Below, in pieces: positions 45,428 through 62,399 of a DNA stretch of 64,000 bases (position 1 is its first letter; every line of letters starts with the position of its first letter). A program made the translations under genes and the position numbers. Origin of the DNA: Paecilomyces variotii (lineage: Eukaryota); the NCBI GenBank assembly GCA_004022145.1, contig RCNU01000003.1. One strand, 5' to 3'. The notes beneath the pieces were generated by a model, which was not told the DNA's origin, made no database searches, and saw nothing but the letters and a program-made list of their open reading frames with translations.

Positions 45428-46730
45428 ATGTTCCCGGCAGTCCGTCAGGCCGTTGTGGCTTCCTCCAAGCCATTCACATCTTCTCGACAGCAACTCCTCA
45501 AGGCTACTACGCCTGTTGCGGCGTCACGATGCTTTTCCACCATTCCTCCCGCCCAGAAAGATATTATCCTCTTGCAGGATAAGGAGAATGGCTTTGGATT
45601 CGCCAGGTCAAACCCACGACCTCCTAAGCCTAGGACCAAGGGCGTGACGGAGATCAGGGGACCGTACTATACTGTATGTCACAGTAGAATGCGATCTCTT
45701 AGCGATCACATCAGCTGGTGTTCTGCCTAGATGCGGCCACTAACATGAGGTTACAAGGTCATGGGGAAGAGATATCTAGCGGACGTTCTGGAGACGTAAG
45801 TCTACAACATATGTCTCGATATTTAGTAAGCATGGCCTAACAACATGCCAGTATGGGAACGCATGTCGATGGTCTCAAATTCGCCGGAGGTATGTCCTGA
45901 ACGGTCGCATCAGTTTACAGACACACATTGATTAACTCCTTCAACTAGGATCCTTCTCCTTGTTCCCCGAGAAGCCACTGCGCGAATTGATCGATCTGGC
46001 TCACTCACACGATGTCTATGTCTCGACTGTATGATGTTACACTACCAATTGGCAACAATATTGTGGGTCGATGACTGACCTGGTATATAGGGCGGCTGGG
46101 CCGAGCATCTTCTCACACACCCAGACCCCAATACCGTCTTTGATAAATACCTCTCAAAGTGCAAGGATCTAGGGTATGTATCCTAAAATCTTTTCTATCA
46201 ACCTGTCTGCTTGAACGACGACTGATCGTCTCAGATTTGACGTCATCGAGCTGTCTTCCGGCTTCCTCTCATTCCCTGCAGACGACTGGCTCCGTCTCGT
46301 CGACAAAGTCCACTCTTACGGCCTCAAGGCCAAGCCAGAGCTCGGTATCCAGTTTGGAGCTGGTGGTGACACTCCTGCCGCTGACCTCGAAGCCATTGGC
46401 ACCTCAGACCCCGGCAAGCTGGTCAACCTGGGCAAGAAGTTCCTCGACGCTGGTGTCGAACGTCTCATGATCGAGTCTGAGGGTATCACTGAGAATGTCA
46501 AGTCGTGGCGCACCGACGTCGTCTCGACCATCATGAAGGAGTTGCCTCCCGAGAGGGTCATGTTTGAGGCGGCGGATCCGAAGGTCTACACCTGGTACCT
46601 TCGCGAATTTGGTGTCGACGTCAACGTCTTTGTCGACCATTCGCAGATCGTCCAGCTGAGCTGCCTCAGACACGGTATCTGGGGCACAGCGGATACGTTT
46701 GGAAAGCTGGTCACTTTCCGTCCAGAGTAG
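45428..46730 (+). CDS. ComA / phosphosulfolactate-synthase-like TIM-barrel protein (HSA32-like) with a predicted mitochondrial presequence
   Basis: Seven exons: KPRTKGVTEIRGPYY, VDGLKFAGGS, STGGWAE, FDVIELSSGF, KAKPELG, LMIESEG, MFEAADP. N-terminus is R/S/A-rich and free of acidic residues. Confidence 0.88.
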
Positions 46731-54560: not shown

Positions 54561-55302
54561 AATTCCGTCCGGTCCCTCACGGTAACCTAGCCTTCCACCC
54601 TGCCCATGCACTTGTAGATTGTTCTCTTCAACGACGTCCTGACCGGCTCAGGCGTAAAGCGGAACAAGACCGGACAATAACCCAGCCGAAATCACCGACC
54701 GGCAGACATTACACCAGTGCACTCGACAACTCTCCCTCACGAGAAGAAATCCAGCGCGTGAGAAGGAAGTAAGATTGCCGGATGCAGGAGGACTGTTCTG
54801 GACAGTTGTGATGATTGATCGGCACATGCGACAGGCGATAGTAGTCTTAAACTCCGTGCTTGACTTGGACCCACTGAGATCTGGCCTGTATATATATCCG
54901 CGTGGTTCGCGGAATCGGGCTTGGCGTCTAAACACATAAATAATTAGCAGTAGCAGAGTATGACCGTTGGTATCTTCAGTTGATTAATTGAAATTCACTG
55001 AGTATTAAGATTGATTCTGGTTACTTATTCTGTGTCGAGGTGCCAGATTCGAAGCGTCAGGTTTTATTAGGCTTGGAGTCAATATTATTGCTACAGTACT
55101 ACTGTAAGTTAACTACTCCGTGGTAGGTGCGTTTATATAGTTCCATCTCGAGCTCAAACAAACGTCTACAGTCTCTCAAGCTATCATCGATTCGTACTTT
55201 GCAAAACCATCCCCATATACGCAGATAATGCACCATATATACTAAATTCGTATCTATGGTACAAATCCCCTACCCTCCATATAGATACCCTACACAACCA
55301 AC

Positions 55303-57269
55303 CTACAGATAAACCAACACCGCCTCCGCCGCACCCACACTAACCACCGTCTCGCCATTTTCTCCCACATCCACATCCTCCACGACCTTATGACCCTGGA
55401 TCGTACACGTCCCGTTCTCAAACGTCTGACCCGCAACAGTGACAATCCCACCCTGATCTATCCTCGCCGTGGCCTTATCCCCCGTCAACCTCACTGCCGT
55501 CACTGTACTAGAAGAAGATGAGGTCGATAGACCAGCCAGTGTGAAATTAACACCACTTCTTGTTCCGGAGCTATAGTAGTCGGAATTATAGAGGAGGATT
55601 CGAGAGACGGTGTCGTTCTGGTAGATGGCATATGCGGCGTAGGGCGTGGTGCCGGAGTCGAGGGGAGCGATGCGCGAGGCGCCGTTTAAAGACAGAGCGG
55701 CCATGTAGGCGCCGTAGTAGGGGGCGCCCATGGTGTAGTTGCCCCACCAGCAGTATTGGCCTATGTGGATAGAATATAATGTTGGTGAGGATGCTGGTGA
55801 TGAATGAATGAATAGTGGAGATGGGAACGTACAGTTTCCAATTGTCCCTTGGTGAAAGAATAGTTGCTGTTTTGAGTCGGTGGATTAGTTACCTAGGTAC
55901 CTAATGTATATTCAGGTCCCGATGAAGAAGAAGAAGAAGAAGATGATCATCATTTAAGATTGTATAGGGGCCTCACCTTTGCTCCCAGAATCACGGCTTG
56001 CATAACATAGTCCAAGATCCAGAGGGCGGCGCCATAGGTTGGACTGATTCCACCACCGCCTTGAGTTGCTTTATTCGAGTGTCAGTGCATCTATAGAATC
56101 GTCACAGAGATGGCTTTACTCCGATGGATTAGGTACAGAGTGCTACATACCAGAATTGGTCTCCCCAAACACAAAGGGCTTATCCAGCGACGAAGCTGCG
56201 TTGATATCATCCTCAAATGCCGAAACACCACTAACTATGGAACTGTGGCTCATCAGATCTGTCAAATTCGCCGTAGACCCTGACTGCGGATAATAATGTT
56301 CACTGAAAGATCGTACGTAACTTGCAGAAGCGCCTTCCTTGGCAACTAACTCCTCGACGCTGAATGATCCCGTGCCGAAGAAGACGCCTGCTTGGATGAT
56401 GGACTCTTTGTCAAGAGCCGTAGCAACTGACTCCTGCCACGATACTTGAGAAGATGCATCTGCTGCAGCTGTCCAAGAACTTCCGTTGGCGATGGGGTCG
56501 GAGGAGACGAAGACTGGTATGGGTATTAGAAATCAATTTTTATGCTGTCATATAATAGAAGTATTATGCTTACAGTTTGGCTCATTGCCTAGTTCCAAGG
56601 CGTATAAATTTGGGATCACTGATACTGCTACCTTGGCTGCAGCAATTGTGTTTGAGATGCTATTGAGACGTCTATCCAGGCCTGTAATCATAGTAATGAG
56701 AATCAGTCAGTTATGTTGACTGTCATTTGAACAACGAGTCCAATACTCACCTAAAGTTACACTTCCATCATAGGAGCTAGCAATTTGCATAAATGATGGT
56801 CCAAAGGTAAGAGAATCCGGTGCGTCGGTAGATGATGCTACGGAGTAATTGACTGCGGTGCTTAGGCTGGGATCATATGTTGCTCGATCTCTGCAGAGCA
56901 AGGCTTCAGTTAGACTATGATCGTTGATATCACTACAGGTCTTCACTCACTGCGTGGTACCCCCGATCCTGATTGGAACTGCAGTACCCATAGCTTTTTT
57001 GAGGTTGCTCAGACAGACATTTGTTGCGGCTACATCTTGCATATATGCTGAAAATGCGAAGAACTCGAATCTAATAAGGAATATTAGTGAGGTCAGCTTT
57101 GATATTAGAATTGCCATGACACTTACGATACACCAACAGGAGCGGAGTCGAGTGTTCCACTTGCATTGGATGGGGGCGAGGAAGGGACAGCAAAAGTGAG
57201 GCTATAGATTGTTCTAGCGGAAAAAAGTAGGGCTGCTACAAGGAACCCTATACTCTGATTCGAATGCAT
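55303..57269 (-). CDS. Secreted glycoside hydrolase family 79 (beta-glucuronidase-like) with a GH79 C-terminal domain
   Basis: Eight exons. Signal peptide MHSNQSIGFLVAALLFSARTIYS; IRIGGTTQD; acid/base ELGNEPN; nucleophile FGETNSA; GAALWILDY; FFHQGTIG. Confidence 0.9.
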
Positions 57270-57782
57270 CTCGATACGATATTGGTTGGAGGTGTCTTTT
57301 CATGAGGGATCCTCTGGCTGCGCTTTATCACCCGTTGTGAACTCAAGTTGTAGTAAAAGCCATATACTTGCCTGGCCACCGAAGAATGAAAGCGGCGCCG
57401 TTTTCCTTTCAGACTTATCTTGAGTAGAAAACGGAACCATTTGTTTGACACAGAAAGCATTCAAATTTTATTGTTCTTGAATTTGTACTTGACAGGGCTA
57501 ATCTCATAGGGTTCAATGCCTATACTATCGTTGTTTAGCCGACATCCCTGCTAGAGCCCATATCAAGAAGTCCTCCAGGCGATCCAACTCCAATAAAAGC
57601 CCCTCATCAAAAGCGAGAGCCGATTGATGGAGAAATCTAAGCTTGAGAATGACATGGTTCACAGTAGTCGTTCACTTTTGCCTCACTGGGTCGGAGAGTA
57701 TTGCCAGCTTCGTCGTATGATTGAATATTGTACTGTAGATTGGTTTGCCTCCATTATTTAATACAACTCTCCACAACAGCAT

Positions 57783-57807
57783 TTCCCCGAATCACACTAC
57801 TTCCCCG
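57783..57807. promoter_or_regulatory. Paired TTCCCCG motifs in the divergent GH79/lyase promoter; the second overlaps a CreA-type SYGGRG site on the minus strand
   Basis: TTCCCCG at 57783 and 57801; the reverse complement CGGGGAA occurs at 59979, upstream of the transporter. Confidence 0.3.
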
Positions 57808-58089
57808 CATCCGTACTACTCCGGCGGCTCAATGAGATTCTGACAAGCTCCATGCCAGGACACAAGATAGTGTAGCTCTTTTCATGTGCTCGTAATGAGA
57901 TAATCTCTTTGCTCAGAACGTGCTCCGATTCCCGTCCACGGTCTAGACATTGCATTAACAACTGGGCGTTACATCAATACGAGCAGACAAACTTGTCCTT
58001 TTGAGGTCAAAGATGTACAGAATCATTAATTGATTGAGCTCTGAATTATTCTTCGGACATCTGTCTCTGTATCTCTGGCCTGTGGCATT

Positions 58090-59516
58090 ATGTTGTTGGC
58101 ACCTGAGATCAGCGTCCTGGGAGAGGACCCTCCCACCGTGCACCGCCTAAACGCTTGTGTGTATCAACAATCCGCAATCACAAGCTTCGGTGGACTCCAA
58201 TATGTCGCTTTCTACTCCAGAGATGGATCTTCAAATGCCAGATTTGTTACCCTTGCGCGGCGTAATATCCAAGAGGCGCCTTCGAACTGGCGTCAAGTGA
58301 CCTTCACAGACTATGAACAAACCACAGATGACGGCCACAACACGATTTCGATTGGAATCTGTCGAGGCGATGGAACCATACATATTGCATTCGACCATCA
58401 TTGCGATGTGCTGAAGTATCGGGTATCTCGTCCAGGCTTGGCTACTGATTTGAACGAAACAGCATGGAGTACAGAGAGTTTTGGGCCTATCCGCCATTCT
58501 CTTCCGGGCAGTTTGACAAACGAACCTCTAGTTGACGTTACATATCCCCGTTTTCTATCAACGGATGATAAGATGTTTTTCGAATGTCGTATTGGCAAGT
58601 AAGTCTAGACATTCACTTCGTTTATCGGATGCTGGGAAAAGGAGACTAACGAGTAATTCTCTACAGAGCCGGAGCAGGATCAGAAATCCTCTATCTGTAC
58701 GATGCTGCAGGACAGTTCAAGTTGATTGGGAATTACCTGATCGGGAGACAATGCAACCCTTATCCCAATGGTATTTCATGGCATCGTCCGACACGTACAC
58801 TACATGTAACATGGACAAATCGGCACTTTATCGACTACGAGGGGGCGACCAACCCAGAATCTACCGCTCACAAGGCGCAAACTGGCCCAAACGGTCCTGA
58901 GAATAACGAAGGGCTCTATTATGCTTACAGCTCTGATTACGGTCGAACGTGGAAGAGCCATTCGACAAAAGAAGAGGTCGCCACTGTCTCCTCGAAACCA
59001 GATACTGGGATGGACTCCCGTGACCGCCGGCTTTTGGCGCAAGAGATTCCCAAGAATAGCGGTATCATGAACCAAGAGGGCCAGATGGTGTGTCGTGATG
59101 GGGATATCCACGTTTTGAATCGGGAGAACACTAGTGGAGAAGAGCGCTGGATACATTACCATCTCGATGTTACTCATGGATGGAAGTTCTCAGCACTACC
59201 TTTTCTCAAGCCGACCGAATCTGGCCCACGCGGGAAAGTGGTCCAACACACTCAGTCCGATAGCATACTTTTCGTCCTTCCCTCCAACACAGATTCCAAT
59301 CTGGTCATCATCCGAGCCGCCCGTGGTAAGACACAGAAGTGGTACGATGAATACGATGTCGTCTGGAGGGAGGAAGGGTATACAGGAGAGCCACTAGTCG
59401 ATGAAGAAGCACTGAGTGAGCATGGAATATTATCCATCTTCACGACTCGCTCACAAGGAGGAAAGAGGGAAATTGTAGTGTTGAATTTCGATTTGAGCAA
59501 ACTAGTACTCGCATAG
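58090..59516 (+). CDS. BNR_4 beta-propeller protein, PL42 (Rha-alpha-1,4-GlcA lyase)/PL24-like, no signal peptide
   Basis: Exons 58090-58598 and 58667-59516. DDGHNTISIG...HIAFDHH, TYPRF, RIG, Asp-box YSSDYGRTW, IMNQEGQ. Confidence 0.8.
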
Positions 59517-60309
59517 GGTAACATGCTACGACGCCATTCCATCATGGATAAAATATGTAATTATATGATTCAAATGCTTCCTTACCCAAAAAAGAAAAGC
59601 GCCAGTGATTCTCAGCATGTCCATAAGAATCATTTTTATAAACGATTCATATCATTTTGGTCCCGCTCCCTTCTTCATATTTATCGCCCATCATCTTGAT
59701 GCCTTAAACAAAACGAAGCCATTATTTAGAAACAGTATCTACGGTGAATACGCTTTGTGGTTGTTCATCGAGATCTAACAATCACGGACTCATTGACGCA
59801 GCCCTTATGAGCTCGGGGTCCATTGAACCGAGCAATCCCCCTTAATTCCAACCTGGTTGGTGGAAACAATATCAACGAGACCTATTAGCGCCCATGCTAA
59901 TACTTATATTTTATCCCCATTGGTATGTGGCACCGCAGCATACCGCCTGGTAATAACCCCGGGATTAAGTTGAAAGTCCGGGGAAAGCATTAGCTTCAAT
60001 TCAGAATGCGGGGTTCCGTACCTAAAAGTCGCATTGTGACCGGCCATGGATAGGCCTGGCTAATCAAACAAAGAATGGATGGTGGTAGAATGGTCAGATC
60101 TATAGCTCAACAACCATGCAGAGATTCTCGTAGATGACTCGATCATAGTAATTTCCATTGTCACTTCCGGAGCTCTTTTACTAGGTACATATGCAGATAA
60201 CATCTGCCCATATTTGAGTCCGTCCCCTTAATACGACACGAATTGAACCTATGAATCGCATATAATCAGGCGTAGCGACAGTCACACGTCCTCCAGAACG
60301 GCTGTATAG

Positions 60310-62399
60310 ATGTCTTCCAAAATGAGATTCAGAACCCAGCAACATGTTGACCGTCAGGCATTGGAACATACGAACTTAAGCAATAACAAAAACGTGCCAT
60401 GGTGGGAAGATAGGGGCCTTCGGAAACTTAATTCCATGTTATTCTTTCTCATGTTCAGCGAGTTTACGCAGGGCTATGATGCGTCGTTGATCAATAATGT
60501 GCAACAGTTGACGGTTTGGCAGCGAGGTATATCCCATTCTGTTTTCATTGAGCTCTATTGGAAGAACTTGTTAACAGTATGCGATAGAGTTTCATCATCC
60601 ACACGGTAACATTCTCGGTGCCATGAGCGCTGCATATTGGATAGGTGAGTGTCTAGTACCAATCCCCCTTTCAAGCCTATCAGCACCAATGTTTACTTTC
60701 AGGCTAGGAAACATTATCGGGGTCGTATTTATTTCCAGCGTATCAGATCGATTCGGTCGACGGTGGTGTCTTATGCTAGGATCTATTTTATGCCTTGCCG
60801 GTACTGGTCTCGCTACAGGGGCCTCGGAAGCTGGAATGTTCATTGCAGGAAGATTGCTGCTGGGAATCGGGGGTGTCATTACAGGAGCAATTGGACCGAT
60901 GTGGATGGGAGAACTAGCATATCCAGCACATCGGGCTACGGCCACGTCCATGTCCAATACGACTTATAGTGCTGGATCGATTTTGTCTGCGTGGGTTACA
61001 TTTGGGTCTTTCCATATGGCAAGTTCATGGTATGGAATCTATCCGTTAAGATCTTCGAGATGGGAGTATCTTCTCGGCTTACTGACGTGCAGTCAGGGCG
61101 TGGCGCCTACCGACTATCTTCCAAGCTTTACCATCCATCCTGCAAGCAATTGGATCCATTGTTTTGCCAGAGTAGGTCAACCAGACCCCTCATTGTGAAT
61201 CTCCCTAAAAAGCGTCCACTATCTCCTATAGGTCGCCCCGTTGGCTTATCAGTAAAGGCCATGAAGAAAGAGCTCTTGATATCCTCACCGAGTACCACGG
61301 GAACGGAAACAGTGACGACCCCGTCGTCCGGTGCGAATTCAGAGAGATACGTGATACTATCGAACTGGAAATTGCCGCAAGGAAGACCTCCTGGAAAACC
61401 CTTATCAGCACCAGAGGGAATCTACGGCGATCATTCATCTTAGTCTGGTGCGGTACGTAGCCATATCCCATTCTCTGTAGTGGTTACCGCTAACTGGCGA
61501 AATCTATTCTATACAGGCGTCTGCAAACAATGGTCCGGAAATGGCCTAATTAGCTACTACCTTAGCAGCATGCTCAAATCCGCCGGCATAACCAAGGAGA
61601 TCCAAACTACCCTGATCACCGCTACAAGCGCCATGTTCAGCTTCGCCAGTTCCGTAGCGTTCGCATTTCTCCCCGGTCGAGTCGGTCGACGACCGCTTAT
61701 GCTATGGTCAATGGCTCTCATGTGGCTAGTCTTTTCGCTCATCACGGCCTGTACGGGAGTATATGTTGAAACAGGTAGTAAATCGGCCTCATACGCAACG
61801 GTTGCTTTCATTTATTTATACAATGCGGCACATAATCTCGGTTGGACGGGTGCTATGATGTTATATGGTGAGTGACTCCTCCGAAAACAAAAGCTTTCTC
61901 CCACATGTTTTCTATATTAGAATAAACACTGAAACTTGCAATAATACAGTTGTTGAAATCCTCCCCTTCGCCATCCGCGCCAAAGGCCTCGCACTTTTCT
62001 GGCTAGTCACCGGCGCAACGGGTGCATTCAACACCTACGTTAACCCTCTCGGCATCGACGCTTTCGCGTGGAAGTACTACTTTTTCTATGTCGGGTGGAT
62101 TATCATACAGTTTATTATTGTGTACTTGTTTTTTATAGAGGTATGTATATTCCGTTTTCCTTACCTAGATATATTTATTTTTTTCTCTCTCTCATGCTCG
62201 ATTCTGCTTCAACATGCTGTAATTCATACTGATGAAATAAAAAAAGACCAAAGGTCCAAGTCTGGAACAGATTGCGCTTCTATTCGATGGAAAAGACGCC
62301 ATCGTTGCGCATGTCAATCCCGTAGCGAAAGAATTCTTGGAGACGAAAGCTGAGAGTAAAGATGGGTTGCAGACAGTGCAGGTTGAGAGAGTTGGATAA
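60310..62399 (+). CDS. MFS sugar porter, lactose permease/cellodextrin transporter-like
   Basis: Eight exons. QGYDASLIN, SDRFGRR, ELAYPAHR, PESPRWL (across an intron), QWSGNGLISYY, VGRRPL, EILPFAIRAKG, ETKGPSLE. Confidence 0.92.

Follow-up and report, generated by a model that had tools for sequence, protein, structure and literature searches.

Three carbohydrate genes lie together in a 64-kb window of Paecilomyces variotii DNA, the whole stretch of 64,000 nucleotides analyzed here, and they raise the question of whether they serve one pathway and whether each step takes place outside or inside the cell. We lean toward reading the trio as a small P. variotii catabolic island directed at the alpha-L-Rha-(1,4)-GlcA cap that gum arabic and other arabinogalactan-proteins carry. 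A secreted GH79 enzyme would first cut the beta-1,6-glucuronosyl bond and free Rha-GlcA outside the cell, as its close homology to FoBGlcA suggests. The neighboring porter would then import the intact acidic disaccharide; this is the weakest step, to which synteny and pocket residues point. A cytosolic PL42 lyase, with His83 as the base/acid and Arg167 as the charge neutralizer, would finally split the disaccharide by beta-elimination, as its catalytic residues and missing signal peptide suggest. In P. variotii the cap is probably cut outside, carried in, and split inside, which, if true, would be an undescribed fungal uptake route for an acidic sugar.

The arrangement of the genes agrees with the sequence-only reading of this DNA. 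That reading had called a GH79 with a signal peptide, lying head-to-head at about 820 bp from a BNR_4 gene of a PL42-like lyase family without one, and a sugar porter following the BNR_4 gene; each of these calls holds on the evidence given below. The ATG-to-ATG gap between GH79 and BNR_4 is exactly 820 bp (57270–58089), and into this divergent promoter region RNA contigs extend to about 57443 from GH79 and from 57909 or earlier for BNR_4. All 15 introns (7 + 1 + 7) of the three hand-placed gene models coincide with joints of spliced RNA contigs from runs X1 and X3, whose sequence matches the window at 100% identity. The seven GH79 introns are joints in contigs of X1/X3, the seven porter introns are joints in a contig of X1, and X1 holds spliced contigs of all three genes. 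The intergenic region that contains the porter promoter spans 59517–60309, and the RNA contig of the porter begins in it no later than 60138.

The GH79 gene occupies positions 55303–57269 on the minus strand and encodes 485 residues in eight exons (57269–57127, 57070–56951, 56890–56751, 56681–56574, 56513–56151, 56068–55977, 55866–55833, and 55760–55303). The protein is letter-identical to P. variotii (Byssochlamys spectabilis) P0344, and its C-terminal exon matches Pfam Glyco_hydro_79C (PF16862; E 7.9e-24). The match to Fusarium oxysporum FoBGlcA (7dfq) has an E value of 5.1e-180 with ~61% identity over the mature protein (283 of 461 columns, manual count), as against only 3e-11 for plain beta-glucuronidases. 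Both catalytic Glu motifs (NEP and ETNS) are present and align with chain positions 173 and 287 of AcGlcA79A. The proposed kinship to FoBGlcA, which frees Rha-GlcA from gum arabic (PMC8377490), is therefore a close one.

Signal peptides were called by a crude hydropathy rule combined with alignment to mature or secreted relatives. The first 23 residues of the GH79, MHSNQSIGFLVAALLFSARTIYS (57201–57269, minus strand), contain the hydrophobic core IGFLVAALLF with a KD10 of 2.89, and residue 24 (LTF...), the first after the predicted signal peptide, pairs with residue 3 of the chain in the FoBGlcA crystal. Among the GH79 relatives listed, 44 of 45 have a KD10 of at least 1.4 within the first 30 residues, and most continue into a conserved (L/V)xFxVPxxPP start.

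The BNR_4 gene (58090–59516, plus strand; exons 58090–58598 and 58667–59516) encodes a candidate cytosolic L-rhamnose-alpha-1,4-D-glucuronate lyase of 452 residues that is letter-identical to P. variotii P0316. Both exons match Pfam BNR_4 (PF15892; 1.3e-27 and 2.8e-22), and the protein matches the FoRham1 structures 7esk/7esl (E 1e-30 and 1.6e-22) at ~31–33% identity. Its structure model (pLDDT 88.5) has 7esk_A as the best Protein Data Bank match, with TM scores of 0.86/0.92. Of the 13 ligand and catalytic residues named in the FoRham1 paper, 12 are kept, including the base/acid His, the helper His, Tyr150, the neutralizer Arg, Arg220, and the rhamnose-binding residues; the equivalents in the window protein are Y25, H83, H104, Y152, R167, Y202, R222, N305, Q306, R358, and E411. 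The sole change is Ser170 to Ala, and the S170A mutant of FoRham1 has 89% and 30% activity remaining according to the same paper. Across all 28 aligned relatives, the core catalytic residues show no variation. Judged by these residues and the modeled fold, the protein is a member of PL42.

Several observations bear on the location of the lyase. Its ORF begins nine residues ahead of the conserved propeller core, which leaves no room for a signal peptide. The transcript contig is colinear with the window from 57909 to the first intron and holds no upstream coding exon, and an in-frame stop lies upstream of the ATG at 58042–58044, so that there is no signal-peptide exon upstream. Under the signal-peptide rule, whose cut-off is 1.9, the lyase reaches 1.79. 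In a quick tree a single change separates 36 signal-less from 16 signal-bearing lyase sequences, with the FoRham1-like representative P0373 on the signal-bearing side. The window lyase is accordingly placed in a signal-less clade, apart from the secreted FoRham1, by a branch with only 63% support. The signal-less state is found in all 36 clade members sampled and in the further loci checked, which argues against an accidental loss of secretion. FoRham1 itself has a pH optimum of 7.0, is stable only at pH 7–10.4, and prefers free Rha-GlcA five-fold, with GSO4–7 also serving as substrates (PMC8377490). The neutral optimum, the stability range, and the preference for the free disaccharide would suit a cytosolic enzyme.

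The porter gene (60310–62399, plus strand) encodes a 528-residue MFS protein of the Sugar_tr family (Pfam PF00083) in eight exons: 60310–60526, 60588–60644, 60708–61029, 61097–61171, 61232–61452, 61517–61867, 61950–62140, and 62247–62399. It is 98% identical to P. variotii P0077 and 59–78% identical to orthologues in other classes. The label "LAC12/CDT-type" that it had been given derives from source names ("Lactose permease") alone and not from sequence comparison with LAC12 or CDT. Alignment identifies two clade-specific basic residues, both at positions that pair with the GLUT sugar pocket. Lys301 (codon 61525–61527) lies in the TM7 motif CKQWSGNG, where it replaces the first Gln/Ser of "QQxSGxN," and it pairs with GLUT1 residue 282; position 301 is Lys in 23/23 clade members and Ser in 33/33 outgroup porters. 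His403 (codon 61831–61833) lies in TM10 and pairs with a His of GLUT7; position 403 is His in 23/23 clade members and 3/3 intermediate sequences and Tyr in 30/33 outgroup porters. Lys301 is kept in the BNR_4-adjoining porters of loci L014, L018, L020, and L021, and His403 in those of L014, L020, and L021.

These two residues are equally compatible with a monosaccharide uronate and with a disaccharide. The enzymes might act as described while a monosaccharide product, be it D-glucuronate, the unsaturated uronate, or L-rhamnose, is what the porter transports, with the lyase substrate entering through another transporter or the lyase leaving by an unconventional route. The basic pocket residues suit any uronate, and source names of the orthologues include "hexose transporter." In addition, among signal-less lyase loci whose flanks are long enough, about one in two lacks an adjoining porter, none being found beside the lyase at L002/L003, at L005 and L012 (10 kb of flank on each side), or at L007 and L017. 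The lyase-porter pair is therefore not obligatory, and those fungi must have another importer or route. We nevertheless consider this alternative unlikely, because a Rha-GlcA-specific lyase in the cytosol depends on a glycoside brought into the cell, and the porter is its only conserved neighbor. The uniformly signal-less clade and the neutral pH optimum of FoRham1, which fits the cytosol, also speak against it.

The import of Rha-GlcA by the porter is further addressed by gene order in other fungi. Lyase and porter have neighboring locus tags or accession numbers in Aspergillus niger (three strains), P. lecythidis, Cirrosporium, and Dothideomycetes sp. NU459, and their matches fall on contigs of one size in A. 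steynii and three Logan contigs. A porter match (38–61% identity) stands head-to-head with the lyase gene in 8 of 42 metagenome loci. The adjacency thus spans several fungal classes and two orientations. The whole trio recurs in one of the 42 metagenome loci, L021, where the gene order differs, the GH79 but not the lyase has a signal peptide, and identity to the window proteins is only 44–61%. Apart from L021, a clustered GH79 was found only in Paecilomyces and, probably, Penicillium verhagenii, where the BNR_4 and GH79 locus tags are two apart; in A. thermomutatus and Onygenales sp. PD_12 the GH79 and the lyase are on different contigs. The conserved core of the predicted system is the lyase-porter pair, which GH79 appears to have joined in a few lineages. 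The expectation of a trio linked across ascomycetes is consequently borne out for the recurring pair and for L021, but GH79 is only an occasional member. The proposal of a single three-gene pathway is partly supported: GH79 kinship, PL42 membership, the signal-less clade, and the porter coupling favor it, and the rarity of GH79 in the cluster does not. The window also holds no downstream gene for the unsaturated uronate or for rhamnose, which counts against the proposal.

The three genes could also be unrelated and together by chance. The flanking genes (SLA1, an OS-9-like gene, and an amino-acid permease) are housekeeping genes, the island holds no transcription factor gene, and GH79 is seldom linked elsewhere. 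Against this stand the lyase-porter adjacency in several classes and two orientations, the diverged trio of L021, and the fact that GH79 and lyase represent two consecutive steps of a characterized pathway. The promoters also share an 8-mer, ATGCGGGG, located at 57803–57810 (minus strand) in the divergent promoter and at 60006–60013 (plus strand), ~300 bp ahead of the porter ATG. It is present in seven of eight lyase/porter promoter regions, the exception being that of L021, and none of 500 shuffles exceeded five. The element is single copy in the whole 21.6-kb L014 and in the whole 20.2-kb L020; beyond it, the number of words common to the two window promoters does not exceed that in shuffles. 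We take it to be of the CreA/Mig1 SYGGRG type, and its sharing suggests a common, probably glucose-repressed control. A chance neighborhood is very improbable on these grounds.

A different composition is seen in L011, a yeast-like metagenome locus. As in the window, a signal-less PL42-type gene is clustered with a sugar porter, and 11/11 checked residues match the window protein or FoRham1. Unlike the window, L011 lacks GH79, and its BNR_4 gene adjoins a signal-less GH88-like unsaturated glucuronyl hydrolase (E 1.9e-36 to 3wiw), with a DUF2264/"GH154" protein, of a uronate-dehydratase family (PMC12269599), and two transcription factors. Such a combination of enzymes is understandable only if the imported GlcA is still attached to another sugar. 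In P. variotii, too, the substrate taken up could be a longer, still capped oligosaccharide (Rha-GlcA-beta-1,6-Gal...) that the lyase uncaps inside, the GH79 being a separate, optional extracellular shortcut. The activity of FoRham1 on GSO4–7 is consistent with this, as is the import of beta-1,6-galactobiose inferred for F. oxysporum (PMC13259613). Yet no GH88, GH105, or DUF2264 gene was found in the window. With only 34% identity and neither K301 nor H403, the L011 porter belongs to a different transporter clade. The free disaccharide is the preferred substrate of FoRham1, and it is exactly what the secreted FoBGlcA-type GH79 that adjoins the lyase in both the window and L021 would yield. Import of a longer oligosaccharide is for these reasons improbable here.

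Import of the disaccharide itself can be compared with known systems. The F. oxysporum 12S gum-arabic pathway, FoBGlcA (GH79, 7DFQ) followed by FoRham1 (PL42, 7ESK), has the same families, predicted chemistry, and order, and the window lyase shares with FoRham1 the fold and the catalytic His, His, Tyr, and two Arg. There the culture supernatant was the source of the purified FoRham1, and both steps are depicted outside the cell; a term search of PMC8377490 finds no mention of a transporter or gene cluster. In P. variotii, by contrast, the lyase is signal-less, in a separate clade, and porter-coupled, and the genes are clustered.

Fungal import-then-cleave pairs include LAC12-LAC4 of Kluyveromyces lactis, the MAL loci of Saccharomyces cerevisiae, and, in Neurospora crassa, CDT-1/CDT-2 with an intracellular beta-glucosidase and CBT-1 with cellobionate phosphorylase, the last being a precedent for an acidic disaccharide. 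The trio resembles these in setting a sugar-porter-family gene beside a signal-less cleaving enzyme, often divergently in the known pairs. It differs in that the intracellular enzyme would be a polysaccharide lyase acting by beta-elimination instead of a hydrolase or phosphorylase, the substrate a deoxyhexose-uronate disaccharide, and the porter one of a clade with its own Lys/His pocket signature. That the trio follows this "import a disaccharide, cleave it inside" scheme, here with a lyase, is partly supported.

The fungal LAC, MAL, or cellodextrin scheme is a closer analogy than the Bacteroides PULs to which the locus had been likened, a likeness that proves loose. The Bacteroides arabinogalactan-protein PULs (BT3686-type GH145/PL42 and PL27 Rha-GlcA lyases) do remove the Rha-GlcA cap with clustered enzymes after fragment uptake, but the window represents a eukaryote with an MFS symporter-type porter and has no SusC/SusD, periplasm, or hybrid two-component regulator. 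The Bacteroides structures 5mul/5muk belong to the same propeller family as the window lyase (TM 0.66–0.67), at an identity of only 18–19%.

The island lies in fungal DNA with short GT-AG introns, and its three gene models were built by hand. The GH79 gene (57269-55303, minus strand) has 8 exons encoding 485 residues with a Pfam Glyco_hydro_79C domain, and the BNR_4 gene (58090-59516, plus strand) has 2 exons encoding 452 residues of the Pfam BNR_4 family. The third gene (60310-62399, plus strand) has 8 exons encoding a 528-residue sugar porter (Pfam Sugar_tr). The 7 + 1 + 7 hand-placed splice joints are exactly those of spliced contigs, 100% identical to the window, from the RNA libraries of sequencing runs X1 and X3. 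Spliced RNA contigs also fixed the one ambiguous GH79 acceptor at 56068. The GH79 and BNR_4 models agree letter for letter with the Paecilomyces variotii (Byssochlamys spectabilis) database proteins P0344 and P0316, and the start-codon positions confirm the 820-bp start-to-start spacing that had been read from the sequence for this divergent pair. No deposited P. variotii model (annotated versions range from 407 to 524 residues) agrees exactly with the RNA-supported porter, and the public annotations appear to contain small errors in one or more splice sites or in the start. The flanks of the island encode housekeeping proteins: SLA1, an OS-9-like lectin and an amino-acid permease. Within GH79 intron 6, a short run of CTT/GAA trinucleotides (55913-55957) was skipped as a repeat in read mapping.

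Spliced RNA contigs of all three genes are present in X1. This shows that the genes are expressed but does not imply co-induction, and the RNA contig depths give no basis for ranking the three. Runs X2 and X7, RNA libraries from food-fermentation metagenomes, also contain contigs 95-99% alike to the island. These were dropped as evidence of expression because they are unspliced across the introns and indicate only the presence of a relative. In X2 they comprise contigs of 17.5 and 2.3 kb, 95-99% identical to 55200-62212 of the window, and represent DNA of a related strain in the sample.

The GH79 protein matches FoBGlcA, the GH79 of Fusarium oxysporum (PDB code 7DFQ), with an E-value of 5.1e-180 and 283 of 461 columns identical by manual count. 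Its matches to bacterial β-glucuronidases reach only about 3e-11 (3.2e-11 to 5g0m), so that by E-value the protein is nearer to FoBGlcA than to plain β-glucuronidases. The motifs LGNEPN and FGETNS have aligned counterparts in 7dfq and in AcGlcA79A (5g0m), where manual counting puts them at chain positions 173 and 287. In GH79 enzymes the Glu of NEP is the acid/base and that of ETNS the nucleophile of the (β/α)8 domain. The C-terminal β-sandwich domain PF16862 is matched over the full profile length (E-value 7.9e-24). The start of the 7dfq crystal chain falls opposite residue 24 (LTF...), and residues 1-23, which hold the hydrophobic core IGFLVAALLF, are therefore assigned as a signal peptide. 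A hydrophobic N-terminal stretch with a KD10 hydropathy score of at least 1.4 precedes the conserved start in 44 of the 45 relatives printed. The leader and the 7dfq match uphold the sequence-only reading, in which this gene was a FoBGlcA-like GH79 with a signal peptide. According to the available text of PMC8377490, FoBGlcA cuts the β-1,6-glucuronosyl bond of gum arabic, freeing Rha-GlcA.

In about 25 database proteins of roughly 1220-1320 residues, an N-terminal FoBGlcA-type GH79 is linked to a six-hairpin domain of the GH78 rhamnosidase type (PF17389). They include P0210, P0217, P0231, P0234, P0237, P0239 and P0242, and their hosts are Aspergillus section Nidulantes, Fusarium oxysporum, Setomelanomma, Paraphoma and Bisporella. 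Whether these are true fusions or neighbouring genes merged in annotation, they again tie the FoBGlcA-type GH79 clade to rhamnose removal.

Both exons of the BNR_4 gene match PF15892, a seven-bladed β-propeller family, and both match FoRham1, the F. oxysporum PL42 Rha-GlcA lyase (7esk/7esl), with E-values of 1e-30 and 1.6e-22 and about 33% identity by manual count. In the numbering of the FoRham1 paper, which is the PDB chain index minus 2, twelve FoRham1 residues are kept. These are the anterior-side catalytic set His85, His105, Tyr150, Arg166 and Arg220 (H83, H104, Y152, R167 and R222 of the window protein) and seven of the eight residues that bind Rha and GlcA (Tyr26, Tyr202, Pro223, Asn275, Gln276, Arg331 and Glu381). 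The eighth, Ser170, is replaced by Ala. In the available text of PMC8377490, His85 serves as base/acid and Arg166 as neutralizer, and the S170A mutant of FoRham1 retains 89% of its activity on gum arabic and 30% on Rha-GlcA. All 28 aligned relatives keep the two His, the Tyr and the two Arg of the catalytic set, as well as the rhamnose-site Asn-Gln, Arg and Glu, without variation. For an AlphaFold model (pLDDT 88.5) of P0001, a database protein 98% identical to the window lyase, the best PDB match is 7esk_A (TM 0.86/0.92, rmsd 2.3), followed by Bacteroides GH145/PL42 proteins (TM 0.66-0.72) and PL24 ulvan lyases. The BNR_4 protein is thus a member of PL42 (formerly GH145), and its residues predict that it is very probably an active Rha-GlcA lyase. 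Compared with FoRham1, about 19 residues are inserted after Arg222, and this stretch was considered as a +1-subsite lid conferring disaccharide specificity. This idea was dropped because secreted basidiomycete relatives carry most of the insertion and the model has low confidence there (pLDDT 53-69).

The lyase reading frame begins nine residues before the conserved LGxDPxTxHRLN core. Its transcript contigs are colinear with the genome between 57909 and the first intron, a stretch with an in-frame stop at 58042-58044, and the sole ATG upstream opens a uORF of six codons. The lack of a signal peptide, noted earlier from the sequence, is borne out by the absence of a hydrophobic leader, by a start fixed through the RNA contigs and the in-frame stop, and by the signal-less clade to which the protein belongs. 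The N-terminal signal peptide of the secreted FoRham1 subgroup is missing from the window lyase. All full-length ascomycete relatives start as the window lyase does, and basidiomycete relatives have clear leaders. A quick maximum-likelihood tree was made from 52 sequences, chosen from about 220 as full-length fungal-type plus five bacterial-type proteins. With signal peptides called by a crude hydropathy cut-off, a single change parts 36 signal-less from 16 signal-bearing sequences, across a branch with only 63% support. P0373, which was picked as FoRham1-like by eye from its likeness to the 7esk alignment, begins MRLATCLLALAATVVSA and groups with the bacterial sequences (support 99). The FoRham1 peptides in the available text of PMC8377490 occur in none of the proteins fetched. 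The same text describes FoRham1 as purified from culture supernatant and calls its gene "mature". It gives an optimum of pH 7.0, stability only from pH 7 to 10.4, and a five-fold preference for free Rha-GlcA over the tetrasaccharide GSO4 (PMC8377490). Such a pH range and preference would be more in keeping with a cytosolic enzyme than with the medium of a mould, which is acidified.

The porter belongs to the Sugar_tr family by PF00083 matches on two exons and by the motifs DRFGRRW, PESPRWL, IETKG and KQWSGNG of the RNA-supported model, which place it among the MFS sugar porters. Several orthologues from Colletotrichum, Cytospora and Lachnellula bear the source name "Lactose permease", and the putative link of the porter to LAC12 and the cellodextrin transporters comes from such names. 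An ESM Atlas search with the porter returned generic MFS clusters only. Orthologues 59-78% identical over the full length occur in Aspergillus, Rasamsonia, Onygenales, Colletotrichum, Cytospora, Botrytis, Monilinia and Dothideomycetes. Three relatives are intermediate at 48-54% identity, and no other sugar porter found exceeds 43%.

To compare pocket residues, the window porter and 22 full-length orthologues were set against 33 more distant porters, chosen from 120 listed, with fragments and short models excluded. Lys301, in the TM7 motif CKQWSGNG, is Lys in 23 of 23 clade members, Ser in 33 of 33 outgroup porters and Tyr in all three intermediates. His403 in TM10 is His throughout the clade (23/23) and the intermediates (3/3), and the outgroup has Tyr in 30 of 33. 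In this alignment Lys301 and His403 are clade-specific basic residues of the porter. A phmmer alignment places Lys301 at residue 282 of GLUT1 and His403 opposite a His of GLUT7, positions that presumably contact the sugar in GLUT structures. Both residues recur in the lyase-adjoining porters of three metagenome loci (L014, L020 and L021), with Lys301 also in that of L018, and both are absent from the unrelated porter of locus L011. The cationic pocket that these residues would form fits an anionic sugar, without distinguishing a disaccharide from a monosaccharide.

A lyase-profile scan of metagenome contigs yielded 42 loci. At eight of them (L008, L009, L014, L018, L019, L020, L021 and L029) a porter match of 38-61% identity lies head-to-head with the lyase. 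L014, L018 and L020 share flanking housekeeping genes (Mnd1, arrestin-like and desaturase) and were therefore counted as one lineage; no catabolic gene was found near their porter-lyase pairs. The lyase lacks a signal peptide at all seven porter-paired loci where its N terminus is visible, and the two loci with a leader-bearing lyase, L023 and L032, have no porter. Among annotated genomes, lyase and porter are numbered consecutively, by tag or by accession, in A. niger (3 strains), P. lecythidis, Cirrosporium novae-zelandiae (002757/002756) and Dothideomycetes sp. NU459 (g3397/g3398), and their source contigs are of equal size in A. steynii and three Logan contigs. GH79, lyase and porter stand under three consecutive accession numbers in at least 12 P. 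variotii records. The whole trio is found at L021 in an order that differs from the window's, porter-lyase-GH79, with 61%, 44% and 46% identity to the window's porter, lyase and GH79, a signal peptide on GH79 and none on the lyase. The lyase and GH79 tags of Penicillium verhagenii differ by two. Of the linkage proposed for the three genes, the lyase-porter pair thus recurs, but GH79 is rarely joined to it, being present at only 1 of the 42 loci. The pairing is itself not universal, since several signal-less lyase loci have enough flank and no porter: none was found near the lyase at L002/L003, L005 and L012 (10 kb on both sides), L007 or L017. An intronless, signal-less PL42-type gene, 48-49% identical, occurs in several metagenomes (L005:1-20154, also L001-L004). 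It is an exception to the lyase-porter pairing, with no porter or GH79 within 10 kb, and its neighbours encode cell-wall proteins (PIR/But2, GLEYA) and GH31.

By word count, ATGCGGGG is present in seven of eight promoter regions. The eight were both island promoters of the window plus the spacers between porter and lyase at L008, L009, L014, L019, L020 and L021; the L021 promoter lacks it. In 500 shuffles no 8-mer was common to more than five regions. In the window, one copy lies in the GH79/BNR_4 divergent promoter (57803-57810, minus strand) and one in the porter promoter (60006-60013), and these are two of five copies in the 64 kb. The element is the sole copy in all of L014 (21.6 kb) and likewise of L020 (20.2 kb). 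Its GCGGGG core matches the CreA/Mig1 consensus, SYGGRG, and on this match glucose repression would be the simplest reading of ATGCGGGG control; a dedicated factor acting at the element is possible. Other words shared by the two window promoters are at chance level for 9- to 12-mers. The CGG/CCG pairs listed there were given no weight.

With moderate confidence, we propose a pathway in which the secreted GH79 would free Rha-GlcA from arabinogalactan-protein side chains, the porter would bring the disaccharide into the cell, and the PL42 lyase would split it in the cytosol. Release and cleavage are suggested by close homology and conserved catalytic residues, and the cytosolic site of the lyase by its gene structure and the clade-wide absence of a leader. 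Import is suggested by synteny and pocket residues only. No candidate gene for further metabolism of the uronate was seen within the window.

A different gene set is found at L011 (3274-15620), a yeast-like, intronless metagenome locus whose BNR_4 protein is 58% identical to one from Yamadazyma tenuis. It encodes a Zn-cluster transcription factor, a sugar porter, a GH88-like unsaturated glucuronyl hydrolase (E-value 1.9e-36 to 3wiw), a PL42-type BNR_4 protein, a DUF2264/"GH154"-family protein and a C2H2 fungal transcription factor. DUF2264/"GH154" is a uronate-dehydratase family in the available text of PMC12269599. The three enzymes lack signal peptides, and L011 has the look of a complete cluster for handling uronate-capped oligosaccharides in the cytosol. 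Its pairing of a signal-less PL42 with a signal-less GH88-like enzyme independently supports intracellular PL42 action in fungi. The same enzyme set, GH88-like, DUF2264/"GH154" and PL42, also raises a less probable alternative, in which longer capped oligosaccharides would be what is imported.

Import of free Rha-GlcA, the reading we favour, can be set against known systems. In the F. oxysporum pathway the same enzymes both act outside the cell, whereas the window lyase is signal-less. Fungal LAC, MAL and cellodextrin systems import their sugar and then cleave it inside. The window system follows the same logic and shows the conserved adjacency of porter and signal-less enzyme seen in LAC/MAL-type pairs, but would use a lyase where those have a hydrolase, on a substrate that is acidic. 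The likeness to Bacteroides PULs drawn in the sequence-only reading is a loose one: the island has only GH79, BNR_4 and Sugar_tr genes, with no SusC/SusD-like pair, between housekeeping flanks, and does not qualify as a PUL as defined for Bacteroides.

More tentatively, these features together could define a conserved, hitherto unrecognized Pezizomycotina porter clade for anionic uronate-capped disaccharides, marked by Lys301/His403, that feeds the first described fungal intracellular polysaccharide-lyase step under shared ATGCGGGG control. Secreted FoRham1-type and cytosolic PL42 enzymes would then be alternative strategies for the same plant-gum cap. Rha-GlcA caps block enzymes from degrading gum arabic and other arabinogalactan-proteins. 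If the proposal is true, the porter would be the first fungal transporter named for Rha-GlcA and among very few for any uronate-containing oligosaccharide. A polysaccharide lyase would be at work in the fungal cytosol, the existence of a pH-7 lyase in fungi that acidify their medium would be explained, and the three genes would form a compact cassette for engineering yeast onto gum-derived sugars. A split of PL42 into secreted and cytosolic branches would matter for CAZyme-based secretome predictions. A literature search at abstract level found no publication linking fungal PL42 or GH145 to a transporter or the cytosol, and the words "transporter", "intracellular" and "gene cluster" each have 0 occurrences in the available text of PMC8377490.

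Elsewhere in the window, an open reading frame at 46215-46727 has a strong Pfam ComA match, (2R)-phospho-3-sulfolactate synthase (E-value 5.6e-44), a family best known from archaeal coenzyme M synthesis. A long open reading frame at 19923-22580 encodes an NPHP3_N NACHT-type NTPase domain with DUF7791, typical of fungal NLR-like proteins.
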